Source of the DNA: an uncultured Candidatus Saccharibacteria bacterium
GTDB taxonomy: Bacteria; Patescibacteriota; Minisyncoccia; UBA11713; 2-01-FULL-45-33
Assembly: GCA_964464405.1 (NCBI GenBank)
Contig: CAYXFX010000002.1
Location: forward strand, 44,027-108,026
DNA: 64,000 nucleotides
Direction of reading: 5' to 3'
Position numbers and translations under genes: made by a program. Shown in pieces: positions 5,511 through 62,778 of this stretch. The notes under the pieces were generated by a model. It was not told the origin of the DNA, did not search any database, and saw nothing but the letters and a program-made list of their open reading frames with translations. Each line of letters opens with the position of its first letter. Positions within the stretch are counted from its first letter, which is position 1.

Positions 5511-7224
5511 ACAGATGAATGTTATTCTCACTTTTAATTTCATGAAGTGTATTTATAAAAGACAAATCCCAGCTAGAATAAATATTTTCATCCCACAAAA
5601 TATACCGAACTTCATATTTTTTAAGCATTTCGACGATGTTTTTAGGACTCCGCGCCAGTTTGTTGTATTCCTCTGAAAAATCATTTAATAACTTTTCTCT
5701 TTTTTCTAAAAGTTCCGGATCTTTTCTTCCTAGTCTGCGATAATATTCATAGTGGTCAAATCCGGATAAATATCCTTCTATGCCTTCATAAACCGCGTGA
5801 GTCGGCGCATTATTAATAAAATCATTTCTTGTATTTTTATTTAAATATACATAAAGATACAAAGCGTCTTTAAAGCGCTGCATAGGATTGTAATTCATTG
5901 CGGCAAAATTGTGCCAAAAAAGATCATGCGGAGTATATATATTTACGAGCTGCGCATAAGGGTCGTCTCCCGCTAAAACAACTTCTGACTCTTTTTCTTT
6001 ATTTAAAATTTCCAGCACACTTTTATATTTTTGGTCGTAAAGTTTAGATTCGTAAGTTGTGCCAAAAGAACGGTATTGTCCTATGGCCGTATTTAGCAAC
6101 GCAAGCAAAATCAGTAAACCAAAACTTATTTTTCTTAAAAAATTATAATTTTCGGACAGCTTCCATAACATATAGAAGGTCGTAATAATAAAAAGCGGCA
6201 CAATAAAAAACCAGTAATAATGATTTTGTTGTAGCATTCGTCCCGTAATTATCTGCTGGTTTAAGGCGACAAATCCGGCAAGAGCCACAGAAAGCACAAA
6301 AGGGGCATTCGAATCCTCGCGGTCTTTGTAAATAAAAAAACAGAAAAGAACCAGTGAAAGCAACCCGAGATTATTCATTATAGGAGCGCTTCCCAGTGAC
6401 GACCATGAAAAATAATAAAATTGTTCACCTGCCGGCGAATTCAAAAAGTTAAAAATACGCAAAAGATACAAGCTTCCGATAAAAAATCCCAAAATATTTA
6501 TCCAGAAAACCCTTTTTGCGTTGCGGAAATCCTTCCAAAAAAGAAGGGCTAAAAATAAAATTCCGTTTAAAACTAAAGCAAAAGTCCAGGCATAAAAATA
6601 AACATAAAAAAGTAGCCCGTAAAGCGCGCCGGCAAAAAATATCGTTTTAATTTTTTCTGATTTAAGTGCCTTTACTAAAGCAAGCAAGTAAGAAAAAAAT
6701 GCAAGTGAGCCAATATAAGGATATAAAGATCTGCCGTACACATTAAAATCCTCGTAAAAAAAAGTTTTGTTGTATACTATTGAATAACCGCCGACAACAA
6801 AAAGTGCGGCGGATATTGCGAGAAATTTATTCGCGCTAATTTTCAAAGTTAAAAAATAAATTAGCAGAATTAAAAGAAATACTCCTATAAAATTATAAAT
6901 ATTATAAAGCGTTACAATATTTATTTGGTCCTTCAGTCCAAGAAAATATAAAGGTCCAACAAGCACATACTCGTTTATCGTAAAGTAATAGTCTTGTTTC
7001 GTACTTTTCCCTTCTTTTAATGCGGGGTTGCCCAAATAATTGCCGTGAAGCACATCGTTTCCGCGTGTTAAATAAAGATGTTCGTCTGTACCAAAATGAG
7101 CAATGTTTATTCCTTGGTACGAATCTCCAGCTTTAAAATAAAATGCAACTAGAGGAAATTCTATAAGCAGAGCCAAAATAAAGGACGAAATTAGTGCGGC
7201 TCGATGTTGTTTTAAAAATTCCAT
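5500..7224 (-). CDS. Large polytopic membrane protein, paralog B
   Basis: 574 aa with the same conserved motifs as paralogs A and C (AGDSYQGINIAHFGTDEHLYLTRGNDVLHGNYLGN; FYVYFYAWTF; YTPHDLFW; KNIVEMLKKYEVRYILWDE). Confidence 0.8.
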   Translation of the reverse strand: MEFLKQHRAALISSFILALLIEFPLVAFYFKAGDSYQGINIAHFGTDEHLYLTRGNDVLHGNYLGNPALKEGKSTKQDYYFTINEYVLVGPLYFLGLKDQINIVTLYNIYNFIGVFLLILLIYFLTLKISANKFLAISAALFVVGGYSIVYNKTFFYEDFNVYGRSLYPYIGSLAFFSYLLALVKALKSEKIKTIFFAGALYGLLFYVYFYAWTFALVLNGILFLALLFWKDFRNAKRVFWINILGFFIGSLYLLRIFNFLNSPAGEQFYYFSWSSLGSAPIMNNLGLLSLVLFCFFIYKDREDSNAPFVLSVALAGFVALNQQIITGRMLQQNHYYWFFIVPLFIITTFYMLWKLSENYNFLRKISFGLLILLALLNTAIGQYRSFGTTYESKLYDQKYKSVLEILNKEKESEVVLAGDDPYAQLVNIYTPHDLFWHNFAAMNYNPMQRFKDALYLYVYLNKNTRNDFINNAPTHAVYEGIEGYLSGFDHYEYYRRLGRKDPELLEKREKLLNDFSEEYNKLARSPKNIVEMLKKYEVRYILWDENIYSSWDLSFINTLHEIKSENNIHLYEI

Positions 7225-43893: not shown

Positions 43894-44520
43894 ATGCCGC
43901 GAAATTTGGTGATAGCCGTTGATTTGGATAATACTTTAATTCAATCATCGGCACGATTTAGAAAAGAACAAAAAATTGCGGAAAAATACAAGCTCGATCC
44001 GGAATTGTACGCCCAGTGCATCCGAAATGAATTTATATTAAAAAACGGCAATGGGCGCTATTCCTTCCAGCACTTGTGGCCATTTTTAAGAAAACTTAAA
44101 CCTGATTTGCCAAGAAAAATGCTACACGAGTTAAATGCACTGCTTGACCATCAATATTTTTTCCACGACACAATTAATTTTTTAGAAAATTTTCAAAAAA
44201 AATCTTTAATTTTAGTCTCGTCCGGTGATTATGTTGTTCAATTAAGGAAAGTGCATGCGCATCGCATTGAAAAGTACTTTAAAAATATTTACGTAACCGA
44301 AAACAAACCGGAGGTAATTTCGAAAATTAAAAAAACCAAAACTTTTTTTCTCGATGACGCGCCGCGCCAAATTGATGCCGTAAAGAAGCGAAATCCAGAT
44401 GTTACCTGCATTCTCATGCGCAAACCGCCTCCGTGGGAAGTCAAAACAAAATCAGAACTTGCGGACGTGCATTGCACAAACTTATTAGACGCCGCCGCAT
44501 ACATAAAAAGCAGAATGTAA
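43894..44520 (+). CDS. HAD-superfamily hydrolase
   Basis: IAVDLDNTLIQ motif I, ..LVSSGDYVVQ.., and ..FFLDDAPRQ.. motif IV. Confidence 0.55.
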   Translation: MPRNLVIAVDLDNTLIQSSARFRKEQKIAEKYKLDPELYAQCIRNEFILKNGNGRYSFQHLWPFLRKLKPDLPRKMLHELNALLDHQYFFHDTINFLENFQKKSLILVSSGDYVVQLRKVHAHRIEKYFKNIYVTENKPEVISKIKKTKTFFLDDAPRQIDAVKKRNPDVTCILMRKPPPWEVKTKSELADVHCTNLLDAAAYIKSRM

Positions 44521-50801: not shown

Positions 50802-50832
50802 AAAAAAGCGGAGCTAAACCGCTTTTATTATC
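50802..50832. terminator. Bidirectional terminator hairpin
   Basis: AAAAGCGG-agctaaa-CCGCTTTT between convergent genes. Confidence 0.5.
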
Positions 50833-51241
50833 CTGGAACCATAAGCCAACCAACAACAACTGAAAGGGAAACTCCGATTATTTGACGAATACTCAAGTTT
50901 TGACCCTGCAATAAGCAAACCATTAAAACAGTAATCGCGGGGTAGAGTGCTGAAAGAGCGGAAGTTTTAATTGGGCCGCTTGATGCCATAGCTAAAACAA
51001 AAGTTAAGCCTCCTAAAGCATAGGTAAGACCAAAAGTAAGTCCTTCCCAATCCCACCGCCAGCCGGCAAACGTGCGAAAATTCGTAGAAAATAAAATGAC
51101 AATCCCCCAAAAAATCATACCTAGCGCGATCCAGAAGTGACCGTCGAATATATCGCCGTTCTTTTTTGCAAGAACGCCGCCAAAATAAACAGACACGCCC
51201 CACATAATTGGCACAAGATAAACCCATATCGAATTTTTCAT
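50828..51241 (-). CDS. Small 4-TM membrane protein (EamA/SMR-like)
   Basis: 137 aa with four hydrophobic helices. Confidence 0.5.
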   Translation of the reverse strand: MKNSIWVYLVPIMWGVSVYFGGVLAKKNGDIFDGHFWIALGMIFWGIVILFSTNFRTFAGWRWDWEGLTFGLTYALGGLTFVLAMASSGPIKTSALSALYPAITVLMVCLLQGQNLSIRQIIGVSLSVVVGWLMVPG

Positions 51242-51534
51242 TCATCACTCTCCTTCAAAGATTCCGGTACCCGAAGTGAGTCGGTGTAAGTTTTCCACTG
51301 AATCGGCCAGTTATGAAAAAGCACGTTTCCCCTCAAAAGACACACCAAATTCCGTCGTGCTTCAGCCAACGTTTTGCCCTTCGCACAAGCTTCAACTAAA
51401 GCAATGTGTGCGCCTCGAACAGCACAAACATCTTTAGTGTTATCCAGAAGTGAAATTTTTATTGAATACCGTCCCACTTCTTCCTCTTCTTTCAACTCAC
51501 CGTCAATTTGGTAAACGACTTCCTCGAGAGTCAT
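51238..51534 (-). CDS. HicB-like / UPF0150-family small protein (tentative)
   Basis: GRYSIKISLLDNTKDVCAVRGAHIALVEACAKGKTLAEARRNLVCLL fits the UPF0150 pattern (x-G-Y..v.P...G...G.T.EEA..N..EAI). It occupies the position where rplA would normally follow rplK. Confidence 0.4.
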   Translation of the reverse strand: MTLEEVVYQIDGELKEEEEVGRYSIKISLLDNTKDVCAVRGAHIALVEACAKGKTLAEARRNLVCLLRGNVLFHNWPIQWKTYTDSLRVPESLKESDE

Positions 51535-51579: not shown

Positions 51580-52005
51580 CTAATCAACAATTTCAATACC
51601 CATGCTTCTGGCACTGCCAGCGATGATTTTTTCGGCAGCTTCAACGTCGTTTGCGTTTAGATCTTCCATTTTGCGTTCCGCAATTTCTCGAAGTTTTGCT
51701 TTTGATATTTTTCCTACTTTTCCTTTTAAAGGATTTGCGGCTCCCTTATCAATCCCCGCCGCCTTACGCAAAAGATCAGACGCAGGAGGAGTTTTTAATT
51801 TAAAATCGAAAGTCCGATCCTGATAGATCGTAATTTCGGCAGGTATTATGTCATCCCCCATCTGAGCAGTAGCCGCGTTAAACTTGCTTACGAATTCTCC
51901 AATGTTAATTCCGTGCTGACCCAAAGCAGGCCCAATTGGAGGAGCCGGGGTCGCCTTGCCCGCAGGCGCTTGTATTTTAATTATTGTTTTTATTGGTTTG
52001 GCCAT
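51580..52005 (-). CDS. rplK: 50S ribosomal protein L11
   Basis: [35 protein letters not shown]; 141 aa. Confidence 0.9.
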
Positions 52006-52023
52006 TTACCTGCCTAAATTTTA
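52006..52023. repeat. Arm of a recurrent inverted-repeat motif (TTACCTGCCTAAATTTTA) abutting the rplK start
   Basis: It is the reverse complement of AAAATTTAGGCAGGTAA placed directly 5' of the rplK ATG. Its partner arm AAAATTTTGGCGGGTGAAT lies at 52094-52112. The same motif occurs at 52657-52674, 52746-52768 and 62122-62163. Confidence 0.6.
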
Positions 52024-52093
52024 AGCATTTATAAACTTAAATTGAAATTTAACAATAAATTAATATTTTTGCAAACTGCCGAAATTTTATATA

Positions 52094-52112
52094 AAATTTT
52101 GGCGGGTGAATT
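52094..52112. repeat. Inverted-repeat motif arm (AAAATTTTGGCGGGTGAAT), overlapping the nusG stop
   Basis: See 52006-52023. The arms are separated by about 70 nt of AT-rich spacer containing TTTTGCAAA. Confidence 0.6.
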
Positions 52113-52656
52113 ACAATTTTTTAACCTGAAGGAAATCTAGCTCCACGGGTGTCTCTCTTCCAAACATGGAAACTAGAACCTTTACCTTGCCTCTTGATTC
52201 GTCAACCTCGCTGATTTTTCCTTCGAAATCGCGGAAGGGTCCATCGTTAATTCTTACAGGATCCCCTATGGATACGTCAATCTTATGAGTCGGCTCTTCT
52301 TTTCCTAACTTGGAAAATAACACATTTATCTCGCCTTCCGAAAGCGGGGCGGGAGTTGTCCCAGACCCAACAAACCCAGTAACTCGCGGAGTATTTCTAA
52401 CAACATACCATGAAGCGTCGGTTACAACCATTTCAACCAAAACGTAGCCTGGGTAAATTTTTTCCTCGATAACTTTCCTTTTTCCGCCTTTAATTTTTAT
52501 CTTTTTTTCCTTAGGAACCACGACTTGAAAAATTTGGTCTTCCATTCCCAAAGATTCTATACGCTGCCTCAAATTGCGGGCAACAGCTTCTTCATATCCA
52601 GCGTACGTGTGGACTGCGTACCAATTTTTTCCAAATTCTGAAGTTTGTTTTGCCAT
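52111..52656 (-). CDS. nusG: Transcription termination/antitermination factor NusG
   Basis: NWYAVHTYAGYEE (NGN domain) and a C-terminal KOW (..GDPVRINDGPFRDFEGKI..); 181 aa. Confidence 0.9.
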   Translation of the reverse strand: MAKQTSEFGKNWYAVHTYAGYEEAVARNLRQRIESLGMEDQIFQVVVPKEKKIKIKGGKRKVIEEKIYPGYVLVEMVVTDASWYVVRNTPRVTGFVGSGTTPAPLSEGEINVLFSKLGKEEPTHKIDVSIGDPVRINDGPFRDFEGKISEVDESRGKVKVLVSMFGRETPVELDFLQVKKL

Positions 52657-52674
52657 TTACCCGCCTAAATTTTA
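52657..52674. repeat. Inverted-repeat motif arm (TTACCCGCCTAAATTTTA) abutting the nusG start
   Basis: Reverse complement of AAAATTTAGGCGGGTAA placed immediately 5' of the nusG ATG. Its partner arm lies at 52746-52768, overlapping the secE stop. Confidence 0.6.
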
Positions 52675-52745
52675 AAACCTGTAATTAAAATAACTCGGCC
52701 TTTTGCAAAATCTATTTTATTATAAACTTTTGAAATTGTATTCAT

Positions 52746-52768
52746 AAATTTTAGCGGGCAAATTAAAT
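52746..52768. repeat. Inverted-repeat motif arm (AAATTTTAGCGGGCAAATTAAAT), overlapping the secE stop
   Basis: Matches the consensus AAAATTTWRGCGGGYRAAT. Confidence 0.55.
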
Positions 52769-52948
52769 AATAAAAATTTGTAATAGTCTTTGAAATATAA
52801 AATCAAACCCGCCTAAAATTAAGGCGATGCCTAAAGATACTCCGATTACAATAAGGGTAAACCGCGTGGTTTGGGCGCGCGATGGCCAATTCACCTTGCG
52901 CATCTCAATCCGCGTCTCCTTTATATAATTCATTAATTTATTAAACAT
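52763..52948 (-). CDS. secE: Preprotein translocase subunit SecE
   Basis: 61 aa with a single C-terminal TM helix (..VNWPSRAQTTRFTLIVIGVSLGIALILG..), located immediately upstream of nusG. Confidence 0.8.
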   Translation of the reverse strand: MFNKLMNYIKETRIEMRKVNWPSRAQTTRFTLIVIGVSLGIALILGGFDFIFQRLLQIFII

Positions 52949-53036
52949 AAAAATTTAAAGTTTTTTAAAAGCCCCCGAGGGCTTTATATTTATAAGTATA
53001 TAGTAAATATAATAAAAGTCAACGCATCGCGTTGGC

Positions 53037-53231
53037 TTAGTGCATAGTTAAGTTCATTTGCTTCGATAGCGCCCAATTTAGCGCCTTACCGATAGTAACT
53101 CTTATAAAAAATTCCTCGCCAGAAAAAAACCCGTTTTTTTCAGCCAATATTTTCAGCTCGATTTCACTTATACTAAGCTCCAGTGATTCTAGGTCTTCAA
53201 CATCACCCCGAAACACATCTTGTGTATACAT
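53037..53231 (-). CDS. Hypothetical small protein (uncertain)
   Basis: 64-aa ORF in a 340-bp intergenic gap; no family recognised. Confidence 0.25.
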   Translation of the reverse strand: MYTQDVFRGDVEDLESLELSISEIELKILAEKNGFFSGEEFFIRVTIGKALNWALSKQMNLTMH

Positions 53232-53289
53232 ATCGTTCTCCTTTAGGGAAATTATCTATTTTAGAGTATACAATATTTTAGCAAAAAAA

Positions 53290-56118
53290 TCAACTGCAAC
53301 TTCCGATGTTTTCTCCGCAAGAAGGACAAGTATAACATGAACCAGTGCGCACCATTATCGCTCCGCATCTGCAAGCAGGTGCATCCTGATAAGCAAACGC
53401 TTGCGCATTTGCAACTATTGGCTTGATTTCCGCGCGAATTTCTATCGGAGCAGATAATTTCGGCTGTTCTTCTAATTTGAGAGAATTTTTTACGTTAGTT
53501 GTTTGGGGAGATTCTGGTTTTGAATGTGTATAAATTCCTAAAGCTTCCTGGTCGCCTTGCGAAAGAAAATTAATTGCAAGGAACTTTCCGATATAATCGA
53601 GAATTGATTTCGCTACCGGTACATCTTGGTTTTCTGTAAAGCCAGCGGGCTCGAATCTTGAATGGACAAATTTTCTGATTATAGTTTCAACAGGTATTCC
53701 TGACTGTAAGGAAACAGACATAAGTACTCCTATTGCGTCCAACAGACCTGAAATGGTTGATCCTTCTTTTGCAACACGTATGAATACTTCACCAAGTCTT
53801 CCGTCTTCGTACATACCGCAGTGAATGTATCCCTCATGCCCAGCTATAGAAAATTTGTGCCGGATTGCTTTTACATCCGCGGGAAGTTTTTTCCTCATGC
53901 TAGGCGGGGGGGCAGAGCTTGAAACTTCTTCAGCGTCTCTTGCGTCTTGATTTGAACTTTTGGTGCGCGAGGTGTTTAATGGCTGAACCCCCTTTGAGTT
54001 GTCGCGGTAAATTGCTATCGCTTTTAACCCAAGCTTCCAAGCATCCATATAAGTGTTCGTAACATCATCAATTGTTGCAGATTCGGGAAGATTTACGGTT
54101 TTAGAAATTGCGCCAGAGATAAACGGCTGAGCAGCCGCCATCATGCGGATGTGCCCCGAGTAATGGATTGATCGCTTGCCTCCCGGAGAATTTGTAGCAC
54201 AATCAAAGACAGGAAAATCGCTTTCTTTTAGGTGCGGTGCTCCCTCAATGGAATCGTTCGCTAAAATATAATCTAAAATTTCTTCTCTTTCTTTTTCGTT
54301 ATACCCTAAATTTTTAAGAGAGCGCGGTACGGAAGTATTTACAATCTTTAAGAATCCGCCTCCCACCATTTTTTTGTAGGCTACCAAAGAGAAGCTTGGT
54401 TCGATTCCTGTAGTTGTGGCATCCATCATAAAAGAAATAGTGCCGGTTGGCGCAAGAACCGAAGTTTGCGAATTTCTAATTCCGAAGCTTATTCCATTTT
54501 GATAAGCCTTTTCCCAAACACGCTCTGCTTCTTTCCATAAATTTTCCTCACGAAGCGCACTTTTAGCGATTTTTTTGGATTCATATCCGTGCATTTTTAT
54601 AACAGCCAGCATTGCATCTTTATCCTTTTCGTATCCGGCAAATGAGCCAACTGCGCGAGAAATTTCCGCAGAAACATTATATGCCTCTCCGGTCATAATC
54701 GAGGTTAGCGCACTGCAATACGCCCGCGCTTCGTCAGAATCATATGGAAGCCCCAATTGCATAAGAAGTGCGCCTAAATTCGTGTACCCCAGCCCAAGCT
54801 CCCTGTATGCGCGCGCATTTTCTCCAATTTTTTCAGTCGGATAAGATGAAAATCCCACAATAATGTCTTGCGCGATTATAAAAATGCGGACAGCATTTTT
54901 ATACGATTCTGTATCAAAACTTCCGTCTTCATTTAAAAAACGCAAAAGATTTAATGATGCCAAATTGCATGCTGAATTATCCAAATGCATGTATTCACTG
55001 CATGGATTTGATCCGTTAATCCGCCCGGCATTAGGAACAGTATGCCACTGGTTTATTGTGGTATCAAACTGCATTCCTGGATCAGCGCAATTCCATGCCG
55101 CTTCTGCAATTAAATTCATAAGCTCCCTCGCACGCACAGTTTCTAAAACCTCTCCTTTTTTTACTGATTTTAAATCCCAAGTTTTGTCTTCCAAAACTGC
55201 GTTCATAAATTCATCCGTTGCGCGGACTGAATTGTTCGCGTTCTGAAAAAAAATATTTGAATAAACTTCTCCATCTAAAGCATCGTCAAATCCCATCGAA
55301 ATTAAAGCTTTTGCCTTTTCTTCTTCTTTCCATTTTGAAACAATAAAAGACCTGATGTCGGGATGTTCAATATTTAATATAACCATTTTCGCGGCGCGAC
55401 GTGTCTTGCCTCCAGATTTAATTGTGCCCGCGATTGCGTCGGCGCCTTTCATAAAAGAGACCGGCCCAGAAGATTTTCCGCGGTTTGTAATGCTTTCTTT
55501 CGAAGATCGGAGTGGTGAAATATTTACTCCGGAACCAGAACCTCCCGCAAAAATAAACATTTCCGTCCTATACCATTCAGCGATAGATTCTTTAGAGTCT
55601 TCCAAAGCCAAAATAAAACAAGCGGAGCACTGCGGCCATTTCTCTACTCCCACATTAAACCAGACGGGCGAATTAAAAGACCCCAATTGGTTAACCAATA
55701 TATATTTTAATTCTTCGTTGAAAATTTGTGCGTCTTTAACTGTCGCAAAATAGTCGGCTTCTACTCCCCACTTTGCAATTGTATCTGCAACCCGATTTAT
55801 TACCTGACGAACGGAAGCTTCTCGTTCGGGTTTACCCAAATGCCCGGAAAAATATTTTTCGGCGACAATATCAGTCGCAGTTTGCGACCAAAATTTAGGA
55901 GCTTCCACATCTTTTTGTTCAAAAATAATTTCACCGCTTGATTTTGCTATCCGCGCAACTCTTCTCTCCCATTCGATTTCATCATATGGATGGATATTTT
56001 CTTTTGAAAAAAATCTTGCGATCCGTAATTTTTGCAAATCATCATTTGGTTCAGTTGAGGCAAAAAAAGTCCCGCTTTGGGACCCGCTTTTCAGTAAAAT
56101 ATTGTTTCCCTCATTCAT
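53290..56118 (-). CDS. nrdJ: Ribonucleoside-diphosphate/triphosphate reductase large subunit, class II (adenosylcobalamin-dependent, NrdJ-like)
   Basis: 942 aa with the RNR barrel motifs (..SFNSPVWFNVG.., NPCSEYMHLDNSACNLASLNL) and the C-terminal Cys-rich zinc ribbon (CRCGAIMVRTGSCYTCPSCGENIGSC) typical of class II enzymes. No nrdB-like small subunit lies nearby. Confidence 0.8.
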   Translation of the reverse strand: MNEGNNILLKSGSQSGTFFASTEPNDDLQKLRIARFFSKENIHPYDEIEWERRVARIAKSSGEIIFEQKDVEAPKFWSQTATDIVAEKYFSGHLGKPEREASVRQVINRVADTIAKWGVEADYFATVKDAQIFNEELKYILVNQLGSFNSPVWFNVGVEKWPQCSACFILALEDSKESIAEWYRTEMFIFAGGSGSGVNISPLRSSKESITNRGKSSGPVSFMKGADAIAGTIKSGGKTRRAAKMVILNIEHPDIRSFIVSKWKEEEKAKALISMGFDDALDGEVYSNIFFQNANNSVRATDEFMNAVLEDKTWDLKSVKKGEVLETVRARELMNLIAEAAWNCADPGMQFDTTINQWHTVPNAGRINGSNPCSEYMHLDNSACNLASLNLLRFLNEDGSFDTESYKNAVRIFIIAQDIIVGFSSYPTEKIGENARAYRELGLGYTNLGALLMQLGLPYDSDEARAYCSALTSIMTGEAYNVSAEISRAVGSFAGYEKDKDAMLAVIKMHGYESKKIAKSALREENLWKEAERVWEKAYQNGISFGIRNSQTSVLAPTGTISFMMDATTTGIEPSFSLVAYKKMVGGGFLKIVNTSVPRSLKNLGYNEKEREEILDYILANDSIEGAPHLKESDFPVFDCATNSPGGKRSIHYSGHIRMMAAAQPFISGAISKTVNLPESATIDDVTNTYMDAWKLGLKAIAIYRDNSKGVQPLNTSRTKSSNQDARDAEEVSSSAPPPSMRKKLPADVKAIRHKFSIAGHEGYIHCGMYEDGRLGEVFIRVAKEGSTISGLLDAIGVLMSVSLQSGIPVETIIRKFVHSRFEPAGFTENQDVPVAKSILDYIGKFLAINFLSQGDQEALGIYTHSKPESPQTTNVKNSLKLEEQPKLSAPIEIRAEIKPIVANAQAFAYQDAPACRCGAIMVRTGSCYTCPSCGENIGSCS

Positions 56119-56197
56119 AAATTCATCGTATCATGAAGGACAAAAAAAATCCGCCTGTGGATATCGCGAAAAATTTTAAAAATTTTTAGAATCTTGT

Positions 56198-57328
56198 CTA
56201 CTCTCTTTTTGTTCGACGAATGAATGCCGGAATTGAATCCCATTCGGATTCTTCAGCTAAAATTTCCGGCTTTTCTCCAGGATTTAATTTAGGTGGCGAA
56301 TTTTTAGGTGAAAGGATGGAATTACTTTGGAAACCCGAGCCAAAAAGATTGGCAGTTTTGCCCGTGCCCCCGTTTGGCGGAAAGCCCGAAGCAATGACTG
56401 TGATTTTAATTTCACCTTTCTTTAGCCGATCATCGTTTATCGCTCCGAATATGACACGCGCTTCAGCATCAATTGAGCCTGTAATGATTTTGGCAGCTTC
56501 GTTTATTTCCCACATTGTAAGATCCGGCCCCCCGGAAACCGTAAACAACACTCCTTTTGCGCCATTTACAGAAACATCTAAAAGCGGAGAACTTATTGCC
56601 ATCTTAGCCGCTTCTTCCGCTCTGCTTTCGCCTTGCGCATGTCCTATGCCCATAAGGGCTGAACCTGCATTTTGCATAATTGAACGGACATCCGCAAAAT
56701 CCACATTTATAATTCCGGGCATTGTGATTAAATCGGAAATTCCTTGCACAGCGTGCCTCAAAACTTCGTCGCACATCGCAAACGCCGTAAGAAATGGTGT
56801 TTCTTTGTCCACCAAAGTCAAAAGTCTATCATTTGGTATTACGATAAGCGCATCCACCGCTTCACGCAATTTTATCAATCCGCTTTCTGCAAGCCTTGCA
56901 CGCTCAGCGCCTTCAAAAGCAAAAGGCTTTGTGACTACTCCTATTACCAAAGCACCTAAATTTTTTGCCGTCTGCGCAATAACCGGCGCACCTCCCGTTC
57001 CCGTTCCTCCGCCCATTCCGCAAGTAACAAAAACCATATCGGCGCCTTTCAATACCTCTTGGATTTCATCTTTTGTTTCTTCGGCGGCCTGCTTTCCAAG
57101 CTCAGGATTCATTCCTGTGCCCAATCCCTGGGTTAGGCCTCTTCCGATTCGAATTTTTTTATGTGCCAAGCTTTTATGTAAATCCTGTGTGTCTGTGTTG
57201 AACGCGATAAATTCAACTCCCTTAACTTTAGAATTTATCATGTGATTTACAGCATTTTTACCGGATCCTCCAACTCCAGCTACTTTGATCCGCGCAAATG
57301 TTTCAACTTCTGGTTTAATATATGGCAT
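56198..57328 (-). CDS. ftsZ: Cell division protein FtsZ
   Basis: IKVAGVGGSGKNAVNHM, the tubulin signature GGGTGTGGAPVIAQ, and a C-terminal tail. The start is taken at MPYIKPE; the ORF track extends 23 codons further. Confidence 0.9.
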   Translation of the reverse strand: MPYIKPEVETFARIKVAGVGGSGKNAVNHMINSKVKGVEFIAFNTDTQDLHKSLAHKKIRIGRGLTQGLGTGMNPELGKQAAEETKDEIQEVLKGADMVFVTCGMGGGTGTGGAPVIAQTAKNLGALVIGVVTKPFAFEGAERARLAESGLIKLREAVDALIVIPNDRLLTLVDKETPFLTAFAMCDEVLRHAVQGISDLITMPGIINVDFADVRSIMQNAGSALMGIGHAQGESRAEEAAKMAISSPLLDVSVNGAKGVLFTVSGGPDLTMWEINEAAKIITGSIDAEARVIFGAINDDRLKKGEIKITVIASGFPPNGGTGKTANLFGSGFQSNSILSPKNSPPKLNPGEKPEILAEESEWDSIPAFIRRTKRE

Positions 57329-57452
57329 ATTGCATTTAAATAAATTTTTAAATCTAAATTTATAACTAATCCGTAGCATATCGGACAAACATTGCAATAC
57401 TTGACAAAATTTTTTACAATGCTGAATTTTCGATTGGAAAAATAAAGAAAGG

Positions 57453-57488
57453 CACGGCTTTAAAACCGTGTTTTTTTATTTTTTAAAT
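57453..57488. terminator. Terminator-like hairpin between ftsA and ftsZ
   Basis: CACGGCTTTAAAACCGTG flanked by T-rich or A-rich runs on both sides. Confidence 0.45.
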
Positions 57489-57506
57489 AACGTTTTGAAA
57501 AGTATT

Positions 57507-58736
57507 CTATGGCAAAAAGGCTTTGAGCCAATATAAGAATGTCCCTGGGCGCGGATGTGAGAGAGAATTTAAAGAAGAAGATTTTTCTAAACCCAAAAGC
57601 CCTACCCCCAAAGAAGCAGACCAGGAAGGATTCCTTACTTTATCTCTGAAACCGCCGAGACTATCCGGATAAGAAATCCGCGCAGGAAGTTTTAAATATT
57701 CGCGCGTAAAATCTGCAATACCTTCAAGATTCGCTCCTCCACCAACGATAACAACGCCTGCGGCAAGAAGTCCTACCCGTTCAACTTTTTTTAGATGCTT
57801 TTCAATAAGCTCAAAAATGTCGTCTAGTCGCAACTCAATAATGTCCGATAGTTTTTTTCTCGAATATTTTCCGTAAATTAAGTCATCCGCGTCGTTTTTT
57901 ACCCTCGCCGTCTTTTTTGCCTGAACTTGCTCCCTTCCGACAATTCCGTGAGTTACTTTTAGTTTTTCCGCTTCTTCCATTGAAATCTGAAATCCGACAG
58001 CAATGTCTTGTGTTATGTGGCGAGAACCTACAGGCAATACTTCAAGAGAATAAGGATATCCTTCTTCAAAAATTATGAGAGAAGTAGTCAAAGAGCCAAT
58101 ATCCAAAAGCATTACACCCACCTCCTTCTCTCTTTTGGAAATCGCGCCCGCTCCTAACGCAAAAGGACTTGCAAATACGTCTTCTAATTCAATCCCAACC
58201 TCGTCAAACGTTTTTATAATATTTTTTAACTGTTGCGAAAGAGTCGTTATAAAAATGGTTTCCGCTTCTAGCTTTCCTCCAGATAGACCTTCTGGATCCG
58301 GAGTTGCAAGATCGTTATCGATTTTAAAAGAAAAAGGGATAGAATGTAGTACTTCCCTATTCTGCACTTTAGCTAAATTGGTCTCGCTCGCATCAATAGC
58401 GCGCTTTATATCGTCCTTCGAAATTTGGTTATCTGCACGGGAAACCGCTACGAGTCCTTTTGATTTTTGGAAACCCAGGCTTGTGCCCCCAATACCCGCA
58501 AAAGCGCGTGTAATTTTCATTCCGATCGCTTTTTCAAGTCCACTAGCAGCATTTTTTAGGGCTTTTGCTACATCGGCAACTTCGATTATGGCGCCCTTTT
58601 TTATCCCTTCCGAAGGAACAGAGCTCGCTCCAAGCACCCGCGTAAGATTGCCTTCACTACGGTCGGAAGACAAAGCTACAGCTTTAATAAATTCGGTTCC
58701 TAAATCTATTGCGATTACAGAATTTTGGCGGGCCAT
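57507..58736 (-). CDS. ftsA: Cell division protein FtsA (actin/ASKHA fold)
   Basis: VIAIDLGTEFIKAV (phosphate 1), ..LLDIGSLTTSL.., and ..IVGGGANLEGI.. (adenosine motif); 409 aa. Confidence 0.85.
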   Translation of the reverse strand: MARQNSVIAIDLGTEFIKAVALSSDRSEGNLTRVLGASSVPSEGIKKGAIIEVADVAKALKNAASGLEKAIGMKITRAFAGIGGTSLGFQKSKGLVAVSRADNQISKDDIKRAIDASETNLAKVQNREVLHSIPFSFKIDNDLATPDPEGLSGGKLEAETIFITTLSQQLKNIIKTFDEVGIELEDVFASPFALGAGAISKREKEVGVMLLDIGSLTTSLIIFEEGYPYSLEVLPVGSRHITQDIAVGFQISMEEAEKLKVTHGIVGREQVQAKKTARVKNDADDLIYGKYSRKKLSDIIELRLDDIFELIEKHLKKVERVGLLAAGVVIVGGGANLEGIADFTREYLKLPARISYPDSLGGFRDKVRNPSWSASLGVGLLGLEKSSSLNSLSHPRPGTFLYWLKAFLP

Positions 58737-58769
58737 TGGATTTGTTAATTAGTTAAATAGTTGAATGGT

Positions 58770-59117
58770 TTAATTAATTTGTTCTAAAATTTTCTTTTCC
58801 ATTTTATCCATACGCTTCGCGTCTTTGTCCTTTATGTGGTCGTAGTGCAAAAGATGCAAAGATCCATGGATAAAAAGATATTTCAAATCTTTCTCGGATA
58901 TATTTATAAATATTTCACCGCTTGACTTACCAAAGGAAAAAGATAACACATTTGCCGCCTTATCCTTTCCGCGATACTTCTTATTTAGTTTTCGCAATAA
59001 TAAAGGTGTGGCAAGTACAAGAGAAAGTTCGAAGTCTTTTTTAAAAATTTTATGGTAAATGTCAAAAAATATTTTCTTTTCTATTTTCTTCCTGCTTAGA
59101 TTGAGGATTTCCAGCAT
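58770..59117 (-). CDS. ybeY: Endoribonuclease YbeY (rRNA maturation factor)
   Basis: The metalloprotease-like motif HGSLHLLHYDH; 115 aa. Confidence 0.8.
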   Translation of the reverse strand: MLEILNLSRKKIEKKIFFDIYHKIFKKDFELSLVLATPLLLRKLNKKYRGKDKAANVLSFSFGKSSGEIFINISEKDLKYLFIHGSLHLLHYDHIKDKDAKRMDKMEKKILEQIN

Positions 59118-59118
59118 C

Positions 59119-59586
59119 TCACTTCCTTATTGTAGCAAGTTCTTGTCTTAATGCTTGTGAAATTCGATCCCCAGACGCCTTTCCTTTCAAAGTAGGCATA
59201 ATTATCTTCATAACATTCCCGAAGTCCTGTTCACTTCCGGCTCCAGCTTCCCTAATTCCTTCTTTAACAATACGCAAAAGGTCCTCATCCGATATCTCTG
59301 GAGGCAAATAAGGGCGCAAAATTTCAAGCTCCGATTCTTCTTTAGCCGCCAAATCTTCTCTTCCCCCTTTTCTAAACTCTTGCGCTGCGTCTTTTCTTTT
59401 TTTTACTTCGGATGATATGACGTCAAGCACTTCTTGGTCTGAAAGTCCTACATCGCGTTTCCTTAAATCTATTTCTTTATTGCCTATGGACGACAAAAGC
59501 AGGCGTAAAACGGAAAGGCGCAACGCCTCTCCAGATTTTAATGCTTGCTTTTGGTCTTCAGTAATTTTGTCTTTTAGGGTTGCCAT
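59119..59586 (-). CDS. GatB/YqeY-domain protein
   Basis: 155 aa with YqeY-family conservation (..ALKSGEALRLSVLRLLLS.. ..NVMKIIMPTLKGKASG..). Confidence 0.75.
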   Translation of the reverse strand: MATLKDKITEDQKQALKSGEALRLSVLRLLLSSIGNKEIDLRKRDVGLSDQEVLDVISSEVKKRKDAAQEFRKGGREDLAAKEESELEILRPYLPPEISDEDLLRIVKEGIREAGAGSEQDFGNVMKIIMPTLKGKASGDRISQALRQELATIRK

Positions 59587-59807
59587 TAGCGGGTTTTGTT
59601 TTTGCCAAGTTTTCTTAAGAGTTCCTGCTCTTTTTGATATTCGATGCGGCGCAAGGCCTCTTTTTTCTTTTGATATTCTGATTGGGAAGAGATGTGATAT
59701 CTATTTCCTCTTGCGCGAGTAAGAAAACTCGACGCTTGCATAACTTTGCTAAAACGCCGAAGCAAACTCCCCGTCGATTCATTTTCTCTTCTTCTTACTT
59801 CAACCAT
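59586..59807 (-). CDS. rpsU: 30S ribosomal protein S21
   Basis: ..RRENESTGSLLRRFSK..; a 73-aa basic protein. Confidence 0.75.
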   Translation of the reverse strand: MVEVRRRENESTGSLLRRFSKVMQASSFLTRARGNRYHISSQSEYQKKKEALRRIEYQKEQELLRKLGKNKTR

Positions 59808-59834
59808 GATTTAAATACTAATTTACTAATTATA

Positions 59835-60179
59835 TTAAGCATTTGTTCTTTTCTCGCCTTTAGACCAGCCGCCCAAAAGATGCAAATGTATGTGATCAAC
59901 AATCTGTCCGCCCTCTCTTCCTATATTGAAAGTTAATTTATAACCTTGAAGGCCTAGCTTTTCAGCCGCTTCTTTTCCTAAAAATATCAAGTGTCCAATT
60001 AAAGCTTCGTCATTGTTTGATATTTCTTTAACAGACGCAATGTGTCTTTTAGAAACGATCAGATAATGCACTGGAGCCGAAGGGCGAATGTCTTTGAATA
60101 TAACAGCTTCGTCGGTTTCTTGCAATACCTCCGCCGGCATTTCCTTATTTATTATTTTACAAAAAATACAATTTTCCAT
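59835..60179 (-). CDS. HIT-family nucleotide hydrolase (Hint-like)
   Basis: CIFCKII... and the histidine triad HIHLHLLGG; 114 aa. Confidence 0.85.
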   Translation of the reverse strand: MENCIFCKIINKEMPAEVLQETDEAVIFKDIRPSAPVHYLIVSKRHIASVKEISNNDEALIGHLIFLGKEAAEKLGLQGYKLTFNIGREGGQIVDHIHLHLLGGWSKGEKRTNA

Positions 60180-60188
60180 TATAGCAAA

Positions 60189-61544
60189 CTATTTTTTTAA
60201 TTTTGCTTTGATTTTTTCAATCAAGCGCGCTTGCATGACGGTTTCCTGAACACCTTCTTCCATATCACGGACAATAACCGAACCTTCCATTGCTTCTTTT
60301 TGTCCGATAAGAAGCGCGAGTTTCGCCCCGATTTTTGCAGCAATATTTAACTGTGCCTTTAAGTTGTCCCTTGAAATAGACTCCGCAACCGGAATTCCTG
60401 CGTTCCTCAAAACTTCAACTAAATTAAAACTTTTTTTCTTCCCAGCCGGCCCAATTTGTATCAAAAACACTTTGGGACTTAACTGTTTTTTTGCCGGAAG
60501 ACCAATTCTTTTCATTTCGTAAATGATTCTTTCAATTCCCATAGCCCAGCCGACGGCAGGAAGCGGTTTCCCTCCTAAAAGGCTCATTAGGTCGTCGTAT
60601 CTCCCTCCTCCACCTAGAGCAATTCTAGCGGGTAATTCTTTCTCCTCTTCTTCCTTTTGTGAGTTCTTATCATTTTGATCCGCAACTTTTTCTTCTTTTT
60701 TTGACTCTTCTTCCAAAAAAATCTCAAAAACAGTCCGTCCATAATAATCAAACCCACGAACCAGATAGTTGTCCATAAAATAAGGTATTTTCCCCTCATC
60801 TAAAAACTCCAAAACATTTTTAAAATGCGTTGAGCACGCTGAACATAAGTGCTCAATCATCTGGGGAGCTTGTCCTTTTAATTCTATGCATCCAGGCACC
60901 TTGCAATCTAGGAGACGCAAAGGGTTTTCTTTTAGCCGTCTTTTACAATCTTTGCAAAGATAATTAAATTTCTTTTTATAATAATTTGTGAGTTCCCTTT
61001 TATAAATTGGCCTGCATTCTTTATCCCCTATACTATTTACGTGTGTGATAACATTCTCAAACCCAAGTTCGCTTAAAATAAGGGTAAAAATTTTAATAGC
61101 GACTGCATCCATTACCGGATCAGCCTCTCCCAAAATTTCTATGCCAAATTGGCGGAATTCGCGGAAACGCCCTTTTTGTGGGGACTCGTATCTAAAAAAA
61201 GAACCCCCATAAGACAGCTTGACGGGTTGCGGCCATGAACCCATGCCGTTTTCGTTGTAAGCACGCATGATTGAAGCAGTTCCTTCCGGACGCAAAGCAA
61301 GCAAGTCCCCGCCCTTCGTACGGAGCGTATACATCTGTTTTTCAATGACATCGCTTGTTTCTCCCAAAGGGCGCAAAAATAGATCCGCGTTCTCTAAATG
61401 AGGAGTTTCTATCGGCATAAAACCGTAAAATTCTGAAATTTCACGCGCGCACTCCAATATTTTCTCCAGATATTTGGCGTCGGCCGGCAAAAGATCGTGC
61501 ATACCTTTTGGCGCCTGCGGTATTTCTTTTTTTGTTTTTTCCAC
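60189..61544 (-). CDS. hisS: Histidyl-tRNA synthetase (class II)
   Basis: PKGMHDLLP (motif 1 region), ..FFRYESPQKGRFREFRQ.. (motif 2), and ..GGGRYDDL.. (motif 3). 451 aa with a K/E-rich insertion. Confidence 0.9.
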   Translation of the reverse strand: MEKTKKEIPQAPKGMHDLLPADAKYLEKILECAREISEFYGFMPIETPHLENADLFLRPLGETSDVIEKQMYTLRTKGGDLLALRPEGTASIMRAYNENGMGSWPQPVKLSYGGSFFRYESPQKGRFREFRQFGIEILGEADPVMDAVAIKIFTLILSELGFENVITHVNSIGDKECRPIYKRELTNYYKKKFNYLCKDCKRRLKENPLRLLDCKVPGCIELKGQAPQMIEHLCSACSTHFKNVLEFLDEGKIPYFMDNYLVRGFDYYGRTVFEIFLEEESKKEEKVADQNDKNSQKEEEEKELPARIALGGGGRYDDLMSLLGGKPLPAVGWAMGIERIIYEMKRIGLPAKKQLSPKVFLIQIGPAGKKKSFNLVEVLRNAGIPVAESISRDNLKAQLNIAAKIGAKLALLIGQKEAMEGSVIVRDMEEGVQETVMQARLIEKIKAKLKK

Positions 61545-61554
61545 AATATTAAAA

Positions 61555-62115
61555 TTAATTAATAATTTTTGCCTCTCCTATCGGCCAAAGACGAATAAAG
61601 GCACGGCCGATAATATTTTTTTTAGGTAAAATCCCCCAAAAACGCGAATCTGAGCTTGCGCCTCTATTATCCCCCAAAACAAAATACTGGCCGTCTCCCA
61701 AACTCCATGTGCCTCCGGAAGTGGTTTCTGTCGGCGGCAAATATGATTCTTCCAAAATAATCTCTTTGCCTTCCTTTGTTGTAATAAAAACTTCGCCAGA
61801 TTTAATATTTACTGTTTCTCCAGGAAGCCCAACAATTCTTTTAATAAAGTACTCCGAGGGCATGATGGGGTATCTAAAAACAATGACTTCCCCCCTTTTG
61901 GGGTCTCTTAAAAAGTAAGAAAGTTCGTCAATTATCAAATATTGTCCGTTTTTAAAATTTGGCTCCATAGAAGAACCTTCTACAATGAATGGCTGGGCAA
62001 CAAAAGTACGAATCGGAAGTACGATCGCTAAAGAAATGATAATGACTTTTATAAATTCCCAAAGACTGTTCTCATTTTTTGTCCTACTCTCCACAATTTC
62101 TTGATTTTCATCCAT
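61555..62115 (-). CDS. lepB: Signal peptidase I
   Basis: N-terminal TM, GSSMEPNF (catalytic Ser box), ..RIVGLPGE.. (Lys box), and GDNRGASSDSRFWG. Confidence 0.85.
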   Translation of the reverse strand: MDENQEIVESRTKNENSLWEFIKVIIISLAIVLPIRTFVAQPFIVEGSSMEPNFKNGQYLIIDELSYFLRDPKRGEVIVFRYPIMPSEYFIKRIVGLPGETVNIKSGEVFITTKEGKEIILEESYLPPTETTSGGTWSLGDGQYFVLGDNRGASSDSRFWGILPKKNIIGRAFIRLWPIGEAKIIN

Positions 62116-62121
62116 AATATT

Positions 62122-62163
62122 TTACCCACCAAAATTTTTAAACAAAAATTTAGGCGGGTGAAT
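62122..62163. repeat. Hairpin copy of the AAAATTTWGGCGGGTRAAT inverted-repeat motif in the lepB/pth divergent region
   Basis: TTACCCACCAAAATTTTT-aaac-AAAAATTTAGGCGGGTGAAT has its two arms adjacent with a 4-nt loop, placed 5 nt upstream of the lepB ATG on the minus strand. Confidence 0.6.
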
Positions 62164-62214
62164 ATATGATACACCATTTTTGAAAAAATATCAAAATGAT
62201 ACTACCATCAAGAG

Positions 62215-62778
62215 ATGATAATAATTGGACTAGGCAACCCAGGAAAAGAATATGAGCAAACGAGGCACAATGCGGGAAGAGAAACCGCGCAATTTTTTGC
62301 CGAAAAAAAAGATTTTCCAGCATTTGAATTTGATAAAAAATCCAATTCATTAATCAGTTCTGCAAAAATCGGCAAAAATAGCGTGCTTATTGCATTGCCT
62401 GAAACATTTATGAATAAATCCGGACTGGGCGCAATTAAGTTAATCAAGCCAAAAAAAGAATTAAAAGATGTGGTTGTAATCCACGACGATCTGGACATTC
62501 CTTTAGGGCGCTTTAAAATTTCTTACGGGAAAAATTCCGGAGGGCATAAAGGCGTGGAATCCATAATGCGAGCGCTTAAAACAAAAAATTTTATCCGCAT
62601 TCGTATCGGCGTCTGCCCGAAAAAGAAACCCCAACAAAAAGAATTACTTAAATTTATTATCGGCAAGTGGAAACCGGCAGAATTGGAAATTTTCAAAAAA
62701 ACAAAAAAACGCGTTTGTGACGCGCTTGAAGTCATGTGCAAAGAAAGTTTAGAACGTGCAATGAGCGAGTTTAATTAG
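62215..62778 (+). CDS. pth: Peptidyl-tRNA hydrolase
   Basis: IIIGLGNPGKEYEQTRHNAGRE; 187 aa. Confidence 0.9.
   Translation: MIIIGLGNPGKEYEQTRHNAGRETAQFFAEKKDFPAFEFDKKSNSLISSAKIGKNSVLIALPETFMNKSGLGAIKLIKPKKELKDVVVIHDDLDIPLGRFKISYGKNSGGHKGVESIMRALKTKNFIRIRIGVCPKKKPQQKELLKFIIGKWKPAELEIFKKTKKRVCDALEVMCKESLERAMSEFN

Follow-up and report, generated by a model that had tools for sequence, protein, structure and literature searches.

Inverted-repeat units at secE, nusG, rplK, lepB and pth junctions of a Saccharibacteria genome as probable remnants of a small GIY-YIG nuclease cassette

What is a recurrent inverted repeat doing at the junctions of secE, nusG, rplK, lepB and pth in an uncultured Candidatus Saccharibacteria bacterium? 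The question is raised by a 64,000-nt stretch of its genome (NCBI GenBank assembly GCA_964464405.1, contig CAYXFX010000002.1, forward-strand positions 44,027–108,026; hereafter the window, to which all coordinates without a locus number refer), where an earlier note had described six motif arms and offered three readings: a leader hairpin sequestering translation starts, a binding site for a regulator of translation-apparatus genes, or an element like the repetitive extragenic palindromic (REP) sequences. We find that the arms bound insertions private to one lineage, and that their termini and placement are those of a dispersed, multi-copy family whose full members encode a predicted GIY-YIG nuclease and whose shorter members include apparent deletion derivatives. 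We therefore consider it likely that the three arm pairs are copies of a Patescibacteria-wide GIY-YIG cassette family, present here in worn-down forms lodged between host genes.

The arm pattern AAAATTTWGGCGGGTRAAT, scanned over the window with up to 3 mismatches allowed, has exactly six matches, at 52004–52022(−), 52093–52111(+), 52655–52673(−), 52745–52763(+), 62120–62138(−) and 62145–62163(+). Chance would give 0.45 ± 0.63 matches, and none of 100 dinucleotide shuffles reached six. These form three inverted pairs, 52004–52023/52092–52111 (68 nt apart), 52655–52673/52745–52763 (71 nt) and 62121–62139/62144–62162 (4 nt). The number of arms, their pairing, the facing arrangement across roughly 70 nt at secE/nusG and nusG/rplK and the 4-nt separation at lepB/pth are thus as the earlier note had them, and its arm positions were essentially right but off by 1–2 nt. 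Both long spacers also contain TTTTGCAAA, as it had said. All six arms carry the ~19–20-nt terminal repeat TTYRCCCGCC-W-AAATTTT / AAAATTT-W-GGCGGGTRAA with 0–3 mismatches, and a profile built on the full cassettes described below matches exactly these six sites within the window. Pfam bears out the gene identities: secE (52763–52948), nusG (52111–52656) and rplK (51580–52005) lie on the minus strand in a host operon segment (51580–52948), lepB (61555–62115) is also on the minus strand, and pth (62215–62778) is on the plus strand, with its start at 62215 reading MIIIGLGNPGKEY.

The first of the insertions, unit A (52656–52762, minus strand, 107 nt), fills the secE/nusG spacer exactly, beginning with the base past the secE stop and ending on the A with which the nusG ATG opens. 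Its layout on the mRNA strand is secE-TAA / TTTGCCCGCTAAAATTTA...AAAATTTAGGCGGGTAA / ATG-nusG: the 5′ arm (52745–52763, TTTGCCCGCTAAAATTTA, 3 mismatches to the consensus) comes immediately after the secE TAA at 52763–52765, and the last A of the 3′ arm (52655–52673, AAAATTTAGGCGGGTAAAT, no mismatches) is the A of the nusG ATG at 52654–52656. Between them lies a mini open reading frame (mini-ORF) of 26 codons (52665–52745, minus strand; MNTISKVYNKIDFAKGRVILITGFKI and a stop), which opens at the inner boundary of the 5′ arm and closes at a TAG within the 3′ arm, the same positions at which the full-length nuclease ORF starts and stops in other genomes. Unit B (52005–52110, minus strand, 106 nt) fills the nusG/rplK spacer in the layout nusG-TAA / TTCACCCGCCAAAATTTT...AAAATTTAGGCAGGTAA / ATG-rplK, its 5′ arm (52093–52111, TTCACCCGCCAAAATTTT) abutting the nusG TAA at 52111–52113 and its 3′ arm being AAAATTTAGGCAGGTAAAT (52004–52022). 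Here the mini-ORF is gone, with only MLKI and a stop remaining, and a third, degenerate copy of the arm (AACTGCCGAAATTTTATAT, 52074–52092) pairs locally with 52093–52111. Unit C (62120–62163) is compact, two arms with a 4–6-nt loop in the divergent lepB/pth spacer, and its 44 nt equal a bare pair of termini.

Where units of the family abut host genes, the 5′ arm follows a host stop, the 3′ arm ends on the A of an ATG, and the arms show the asymmetry TTCA...A / A...TAAA in the host sense. Units A and B conform to this rule; unit C fits it loosely, since it stands 5 nt from the lepB ATG in a divergent spacer. The claim that an arm always ends 0 nt before the downstream ATG therefore stands for nusG and rplK, where the arm ends on the A of the ATG, but not for lepB, and the other arm does not cover the upstream TAA as had been thought but abuts it at both junctions. 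A 25-nt, 76% match between their interiors had made unit B look inverted relative to unit A; we dropped this idea, as the arm asymmetry is that of the canonical orientation, and the third, degenerate arm in unit B accounts better for the match. When folded as RNA, unit A (mRNA strand, −28.2 kcal/mol, z = −3.46, arms paired) and unit C (−19.3 kcal/mol, z = −3.2, with a G.U pair on the lepB-sense strand) fold well, but unit B, which has C.A mismatches on the mRNA strand, does no better than shuffled sequence (−18.3 kcal/mol, z = −0.40), and its centroid structure is an alternative local hairpin of the degenerate arm 52074–52092 with 52093–52111.

Are the units an old feature of these junctions? 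For secE-nusG-rplK, we compared the window with relatives whose NusG is 84–92% identical (loci L005/6, L007, L008/9, L010/11, L130, L131 and L132 and the P0004 gene table). The secE/nusG spacer is 1–18 nt in every relative sampled, compared with ~106 nt in the window, and the nusG/rplK spacer is 4–18 nt in relatives in which the genes are adjacent, again compared with ~106 nt. The pth/lepB spacer is 2 nt (L207) or 11 nt (L208), compared with 99 nt in the window. No arm-like sequence was found in the relatives' loci, while four contigs of the same species from other samples contain the units, three of them identical to the window over the compared stretch and one with differences confined to its first bases. 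Both ~106-nt units and the 44-nt hairpin are therefore insertions specific to this lineage, gained after the split from the sampled relatives. Presence is thus variable at the orthologous sites of all three junctions, and because the relatives' junctions do not have the units, the motif is not a conserved feature of secE, nusG, rplK, lepB or pth. The window comes from a Patescibacteria genome near Giovannonibacteria. In one Giovannonibacteria relative (L008/L009, 3588–4434), nusG and rplK are separated by two inserted genes, one of the PDDEXK_3 nuclease family and a NUDIX gene; insertions seem to occur readily at this junction.

If the units are insertions, to what do they belong? A scan of species-representative genomes for AAATTTWGGCGGGTRAA found at least 118 places, with 122 matches listed. 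Among the matches listed, many are in Patescibacteria of many classes, including Saccharibacteria, Paceibacteria groups and Doudna-, Jackson- and Buchananbacteria. A complementary arm lies no more than 150 nt upstream in ~56 of the 122, the remainder being mostly singletons in unrelated phyla, as chance predicts, and the pairs are of two classes, compact hairpins with a 4–12-nt loop and units with 41–91 nt between the arms. Overall, three sizes share the ~20-nt termini: bare hairpins, units of ~105–120 nt, and ~295-nt units with a GIY-YIG ORF. In a scan with no ATG in its pattern, roughly one in two of the ~100-nt units lies within 2 nt of a gene boundary, and the host-sense layout is constant: stop codon, TTCACCC(G/A)CC-A-AAATTT..., ...AAATTT-A-GGCGGGTAA, ATG. 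Metagenomes scanned for AAATTTAGGCGGGTAAATG (...GGCGGGTAAATG) yielded 79 matches, of which 67 have an ATG that opens a real ORF and 61 have a partner arm. The gap between arms is typically 63–81 nt (mode 77, full range 38–81), with six compact cases of 4–10 nt, and the units total ~105–120 nt, like units A and B.

The genes downstream of these units include, by Pfam, those for S7, L4, L14, L13, S11, S19, L2, S13 and S3 and, by eye, L23, L24, L35, L33 and S18. Unrelated genes are also found there, encoding MreB, MetRS, SMC, ABC transporters, MurJ, RseP and PilC-like proteins. As ribosomal proteins make up about one-quarter to one-third of the downstream genes, the bias toward ribosomal and secretion genes suspected in the earlier note is real as enrichment in ribosomal-protein operons, and it is not specificity. 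One locus (L152) has four copies in its S10 operon, before the genes for L4, L23, L2 and S3, with interiors 73–87% identical (most pairs 82–87%), and its subfamily recurs in L196 (two copies), L192, L140 and L164; other lineages have the same termini around unrelated interiors. Arms are also found in convergent intergenic regions, beside tRNA genes and inside a 23S rRNA gene.

Is pairing of the arms maintained, or only their sequence? To examine complementarity independently of sequence, we anchored a search on the inner box and left the G+C box free. The distribution of arm complementarity was bimodal, with a few compensatory variants (CCCTCC/GGAGGG and CCAGCC/GGCTGG), which argues that pairing is maintained as well as sequence. 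Secondary copies that lie outside the selection imposed by the search pattern stray from the consensus more often, so the family is more variable than the AAATTTWGGCGGGTRAA scan suggests.

What does a full-length member look like? Among the 79 metagenome matches, 18 had no partner arm within 140 nt, and it was from these that a long-range search was begun. It turned up eleven loci whose partner arms are 249–291 nt away; ten of them come from the metagenome scan and the remaining one (L098) from the genome scan. In all eleven the interior is a single ORF of 84–89 amino acids that starts 0–4 nt past the 5′ arm. This ORF closes at the TAG within the 3′ arm (AAAATT-TAG-GCGGG) or, in a different frame, at the TAA of GGC-GGG-TAA-ATG, abutting the host start; in the L148/L163 lineage it closes at a TGA upstream of the arm. 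The full layout is thus host TAA / TTCACCCGCCAAAATTTT-ATG...nuclease...TAG or GGGTAA / ATG host, a cassette of ~295 bp with a ~20-nt terminal inverted repeat (TTCACCCGCC-A-AAATTTT ... AAAATTT-A-GGCGGGTAA), which adds a cistron in the orientation of the host genes. The ORF matches the Pfam GIY-YIG family (PF01541) with E = 2.7e-13 to 6.5e-14, and the protein motifs, YVY...LY(V/T)GCT..L..R...HN...YYEAF, include GIY (as YVY), YIG (as LY[VT]G), the Arg and the downstream Glu. The nearest solved structures are those of the UPF0213 proteins BH0048 and EF2693 (PDB 1ZG2 and 1YWL), and the product is a predicted GIY-YIG nuclease of the small UPF0213/YhbQ type. The analysis found 112 protein clusters, some annotated as GIY-YIG nuclease family protein from Giovannonibacteria and Nomurabacteria. 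A full cassette stands directly before rpsL in a Giovannonibacteria-type genome (L209/L210), and the sequencing run that yielded L210 (SRR12113384) has the window's species in it as well. Over ~1.3 Mb of fetched loci, no transposase was found between the arms of long-range pairs. No cargo ORF recurs there except the GIY-YIG gene, whose register relative to both termini is always the same.

Do the short units descend from this cassette? As a MAFFT alignment of the window units to the cassettes was uninformative, it was replaced by an nhmmer DNA profile built from ten full cassettes. The interior of one ~115-nt unit (L161) matches profile positions 200–287 with E = 5e-17 and still spells ...WLKAGWGRN..., and the interiors of two others match with E = 2e-11 (L185) and E = 4e-5 (L164); a further ~115-nt unit (L165) matches positions 2–69, in the 5′ part. 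The ~115-nt units that hold such pieces evidently derive from the full cassette by internal deletion. Unit A matches only the last 33 positions (255–287), with E about 1e-3. A mini-ORF ending at the arm-embedded stop is present in 28 of 47 distinct miniature units, unit A among them, compared with 7.5 ± 2.5 when interiors are shuffled. [quoted passage not shown]

How are the genes beside the units translated? Ordinary Shine-Dalgarno (SD) sequences, which the earlier note saw in use elsewhere in the window, do occur, but as a minority habit: SD-like motifs precede only ~13% of its long ORFs. The ATG at 62166, next to an arm of unit C, is not the pth start: its frame reaches a stop after 5 codons, and pth starts at 62215. 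Between unit C and the true start are an extra 51 nt (62164–62214, plus strand) in which the pth start region recurs as two relics (ATGATAC at 62166 and 62196); these look like the product of a local duplication accompanying insertion of unit C. A promoter-like TTGAAA-17-TACCAT ends 6 nt 5′ of the pth ATG, and a promoter-like TTGATA-17-TATCAT on the opposite strand is aimed at the hairpin and lepB, both being consensus matches only. From its sequence (62180–62217), pth looks leaderless. In relatives, where the pth and lepB starts are 2–11 nt apart, each promoter must lie inside the other gene. Promoter and terminator scans of units A and B gave generic AT-rich matches only, which speak neither for nor against an internal promoter. 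The terminator scan did not report the arm pairs, which run into ATG or AT-mixed sequence rather than the T run of an intrinsic terminator. Neither Rfam, at gathering score, nor ARAGORN found anything in the window. We also considered, and rejected, an altered SD sequence or anti-SD mimic (AGGCGGGTGA versus AGGAGGTGA), which explains neither the paired arms nor the nuclease ORF; the window has no 16S gene. The sole 16S rRNA 3′ end among the fetched loci, from a Nealsonbacteria (L040, 298–360), reads ...GGATGGATCATATAATTT and does not contain the CCTCC anti-SD.

If essential genes sit behind such insertions, how would they stay expressed? We propose that the units are co-transcribed with secE-nusG-rplK and with lepB, and that in the RNA the termini pair as a ~19-bp helix with one W.W mismatch, bringing the upstream stop beside the downstream AUG. 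The downstream genes would be kept expressed through a relay of termination and reinitiation. At unit A, ribosomes terminating at secE would start again on the mini-ORF at the inner side of the 5′ arm, open the 3′ arm in the course of translating it, stop 8 nt before the nusG AUG and restart at nusG; at unit B, decay of the mini-ORF would have been accompanied by weakening of the helix. Because its start follows the host stop and its stop touches the host start, the full cassette presumably relies on host transcription and translational coupling. Once the ORF has decayed, what is left of the unit could be harmless, since the paired termini would hold stop and start together and the short ORF would often read through the 3′ arm, freeing the AUG and bringing a terminating ribosome up to it. 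Such a relay would fit both an organism with few SD sequences and ancestral junctions of the form TAA-N(1-18)-ATG. The units would then have no dedicated regulatory role, and any effects on mRNA processing or stability would be a by-product. As for mobilization, the many non-homologous sites and the lack of target-site duplications argue against classical homing and DDE transposition; our guess is that the nuclease makes a structure-specific cut at a hairpin or cruciform of its own termini.

Several observations weigh against a cassette origin of the window units or against this account of how they work. The interiors of units A and B have no significant similarity to full cassettes in the nhmmer profile search, only the termini matching, so that membership rests on termini, size, placement and orientation, together with the mini-ORF in the case of unit A. 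A six-frame hmmsearch found no GIY-YIG ORF in the window. Copy number is apparently low, at 3 per 64 kb in the window and ~1 further per 65 kb in fetched loci. No consistent target-site duplication was found at units A, B and C or at 14 further units (TAA, AA, TA and ATAT were considered), nor was a defined insertion target, and we know of no mobilization mechanism for a GIY-YIG protein of this kind. Although the arms pair in 42 of 47 sense-strand minimum free energy folds, single-transition mismatches in the sense-strand helix comprise 6 G.U versus 10 A.C, and sense and antisense minimum free energies are equally stable (p = 0.22); given both results, there is no sign of a helix optimized as RNA. 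Finally, the near-identity of the termini across the phylum and the enrichment in ribosomal operons could mean that the helix is under functional selection.

The same arms are also associated with RNA genes. In several Patescibacteria, mostly Saccharibacteria, they bracket a complete tRNA gene (Pro, Ala or Val). Arm-tRNA-arm sites are found at L038 100–500(−), L029 7500–7836(+), L105 7600–8000(−) and L086 1650–2100(+), and further ones at L053 4250–4650, L075 1150–1650 and L070 3350–3800(−). In L029, L038 and L105, an outer tRNA-like gene surrounds the block, which interrupts its anticodon arm; the acceptor stem (CGGGCTG/CAGCCCG) and the anticodon stem of this outer gene still pair and covary. 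The outer 3′ part is unpaired in L086, where a GIY-YIG ORF lies just upstream (1316–1597); L053 has an outer Ala-like gene with other stems, and L070 and L075 have unmatched 5′ halves. Some of the outer tRNA-like genes carry a D-loop hairpin. ARAGORN in intron mode finds the inner tRNAs only, and no splice rule restores a normal loop.

With respect to rRNA, a 79-nt insertion bounded by motif arms lies inside the 23S rRNA gene of L069 (2262–2340), at a site that, by comparison with the E. coli sequence, appears to be in domain II, around 620–660. Compact motif hairpins are present ~10–20 nt upstream of the 23S 5′ end in L069 (1150–1190) and L156 (4141–4185) and between the 23S and tRNA-Ile genes in L022 (1199–1240). 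The 23S gene of L156 (4196–6806) also holds an insertion (5557–6045) with three tRNA-like genes (Rfam tRNA matches of 85–130 nt, one of them a tRNA-Tyr by ARAGORN), bounded by a different 20-nt inverted repeat, GTGCGGACTTTATTGAGAAG / CTTCTCAATAAAGTCCGCAC.

If the units are not remnants of a nuclease cassette, what else might they be? One alternative, which we think unlikely, is that they are exapted RNA punctuation: RNase III or another double-strand-specific enzyme would cut at the base of the helix to give AUG-proximal mRNAs, and the elements would be kept or tolerated for this reason. Such cleavage, releasing the downstream mRNAs, may be likened to tRNA punctuation in mitochondria. The helix, at ~19 bp with one internal mismatch, is as large as the substrates of RNase III, many independent genes have the 3′ arm ending precisely at the A of their AUG, and both the sparse use of SD sequences and the leaderless look of pth would suit the idea, as would the compact hairpins near 23S genes (L069, L156 and L022) and the arms around tRNA genes. 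However, an overlap between the stop codon of the full cassette and the host start already accounts for the exact abutment, the units cannot be needed at junctions where all sampled relatives do without them, and the sense strand lacks the excess of G.U over A.C mismatches.

Could the arms instead belong to a MITE or REP/REPIN of the ordinary kind, mobilized in trans by a DDE transposase or by a REP-associated tyrosine transposase (RAYT, Y1/HUH), with the GIY-YIG ORF a passenger or a later insertion into the hairpin loop? Terminal inverted repeats around heterogeneous interiors are typical of MITEs that share one transposase, the arms do bracket other cargo in the form of tRNA genes, and we know of no role in mobility for small UPF0213-type GIY-YIG proteins. 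We nonetheless judge this improbable. The terminal inverted repeats of a classical MITE are present, but no target-site duplication is seen; the arms have neither a GTAG nor a CGTC tag and, contrary to REP/REPIN sequences, are not self-palindromic; no transposase accompanies the long-range arms in the ~1.3 Mb of fetched loci, where their sole recurrent cargo is the GIY-YIG gene; and several miniature units retain pieces of that ORF. Of the three readings in the earlier note, a REP-like element nevertheless came closest, as this is a dispersed palindromic repeat family, but one that appears to derive from a GIY-YIG cassette rather than from a REP/RAYT system.

The reading as an operon-specific leader hairpin, which would sequester the nusG and rplK starts for translational coupling or autoregulation, fares slightly worse, and we regard it as very improbable. 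What stands is that the arms are predicted to pair and bury the AUG, as they do in 42 of 47 folds, and that a ribosome terminating at the upstream stop, which abuts the 5′ arm, would open the helix. Against this, no sampled relative has the units, which are private to one lineage, dozens of unrelated genes have the same termini in front of them, unit B folds barely better than shuffled sequence, no Rfam leader is found in the window, and the L1 gene that normally follows rplK is absent. Still less probable is a DNA operator whose palindrome would be bound by a dimeric protein regulating translation-apparatus genes. Its inverted half-sites are conserved and enriched upstream of ribosomal-protein genes, but their spacing, from 4 to ~290 nt, is incompatible with one dimeric binder, compensatory changes (the CCCTCC/GGAGGG and CCAGCC/GGCTGG variants) preserve complementarity of the arms, and sites occur before unrelated genes, in convergent spacers, inside a 23S gene and around tRNAs, as well as being absent from the relatives' junctions. 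We give almost no credence to an RNA-level hairpin intron, a helix-marked segment excised with rejoining of its flanks as in archaeal bulge-helix-bulge introns, even though it would explain tolerance in tRNA, rRNA and mRNA, the outer stems that still pair and covary around interrupted anticodon arms (L029, L038 and L105) and the arm-bounded 23S insertion (L069), because we found no splice rule that would consistently give back a 7-nt anticodon loop, ARAGORN run in intron mode misses the outer genes, the 23S site appears to align to a variable, non-core stretch of E. coli 23S, and retention of the mini-ORF argues that the interior is translated, not removed. DNA-uptake sequences, integron attC-like sites and parS-like sites were rejected on sequence alone, given the low copy number, variable arm spacing and specific ORF cargo.

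How does a GIY-YIG cassette family compare with known systems? Our full-text literature searches, on the arm sequences and on Patescibacteria palindromes, MITEs and split tRNAs, found no description of the motif or its termini, nor of a bacterial GIY-YIG cassette with inverted repeats at its ends. The nearest published observation comes from a survey of rRNA-gene insertions in the candidate phyla radiation (CPR) (J Bacteriol 2024; PMC11270868), which describes GIY-YIG ORFs in insertions unlike group I or II introns, at scattered and poorly conserved sites, along with many uncharacterized short insertions that have no ORF, and argues against classical homing for the GIY-YIG insertions. The host group and protein family are the same, and the L069 insertion is a short one with the termini described here. 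However, that paper has no mention of inverted repeats or palindromes and deals with rRNA genes only, whereas the cassette units lie between protein-coding genes. Free-standing homing endonuclease genes (T4 seg/mob GIY-YIG, HNH) are likewise small selfish nuclease genes between conserved genes and transcribed by the host (PMC11270868, introduction), and decayed remnants coexisting with intact copies recall their cycle of gain, decay and loss. In contrast to these, the cassette ORF is far smaller, with a catalytic domain only and no recognizable DNA-binding domain, and it is flanked by a 20-nt inverted repeat at many non-homologous sites with no single cognate site. REP/REPIN sequences and their RAYTs (PMC3116915, PMC3733652) share short palindromes, ~100-nt inverted doublets, hairpins and the presumed action of a single-copy, hairpin-recognizing, nuclease-type enzyme; they differ in the tag and self-palindromy already mentioned, in their Y1/HUH rather than GIY-YIG enzyme and in their far higher copy number.

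Among other small repeats, the Correia/NEMIS elements of Neisseria, ERIC/IRU of enterobacteria and RUP/BOX of pneumococci are MITE-like intergenic palindromes co-transcribed with operons. Like the window family, they are ~100–150 nt long with terminal inverted repeats, near non-coding, intergenic within operons and variable among close relatives, and their long mRNA hairpins can affect processing or stability. The window family differs in having no target-site duplication that we could find, in filling the stop-to-start gap exactly and in the host orientation, in often keeping a mini-ORF, in having as putative parent a 295-bp GIY-YIG cassette rather than a DDE insertion sequence, and in termini that stay conserved across a whole phylum. 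The Rickettsia palindromic elements are also palindromic insertions tolerated in essential genes, including RNA genes, of a reduced genome, with read-through by ribosomes, but they lie in frame inside ORFs and become part of the protein, whereas the cassette units sit between ORFs as separate mini-cistrons. We would class the window units, from these comparisons, as candidate miniature derivatives of a selfish nuclease gene.

The motif in the window is the scar of three insertions at essential, tightly packed junctions and very probably not the signal of a nusG-rplK regulon. Small GIY-YIG ORFs, unexplained short rRNA insertions and odd long operon spacers, each noted separately in Patescibacteria, may belong to one family with a searchable signature. 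A more ambitious proposal, which we entertain although we would sooner bet against it, is that the family is a minimal autonomous mobile element: ~295 bp with one 85-amino-acid, catalytic-domain-only predicted nuclease between 20-nt inverted repeats, inserted as an extra cistron with nucleotide-exact stop and start, neutralized by coupling, decaying into mini-cistron MITEs and bare hairpins, and invading rRNA and tRNA genes (which would account for the short CPR insertions), with the nuclease acting as a structure-specific "transposase." If it were true that the nuclease mobilizes its own inverted repeats, the element would be among the smallest autonomous bacterial mobile elements, and the UPF0213/YhbQ-type GIY-YIG fold would gain a new role. 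The layout of stop, arm, mini-ORF, arm and start would also offer a natural experiment on termination-reinitiation of essential genes in SD-poor organisms. Annotators should expect spurious ORFs of 20–30 codons and split spacers at unit sites, and the wider cassette family deserves dedicated study.

Finally, we note three features near these loci or elsewhere in the window. Beyond rplK (50828–51534) there is no rplA, the gene for L1, and two small ORFs encode products of 98 amino acids (no Pfam match) and 137 amino acids (weakly EamA-like). The relatives likewise have no L1 gene after rplK, which fits the loss of L1 in some Parcubacteria. Inside secE, a near-copy of the arm core (TTAATTTTAGGCGGGTTTGATTTT, 52807–52827, minus strand) forms a small hairpin that the scan calls terminator-like; its presence in the coding sequence may be due to chance. 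A G+C-rich palindromic segment, GCCCGCCAATTGGCAGGCGGGGAAATTGAAAATT, occurs twice, 1003 nt apart (39260–39300 and 40263–40303), inside an ORF for 766 amino acids (38555–40855), where it is probably an internal repeat of the protein.

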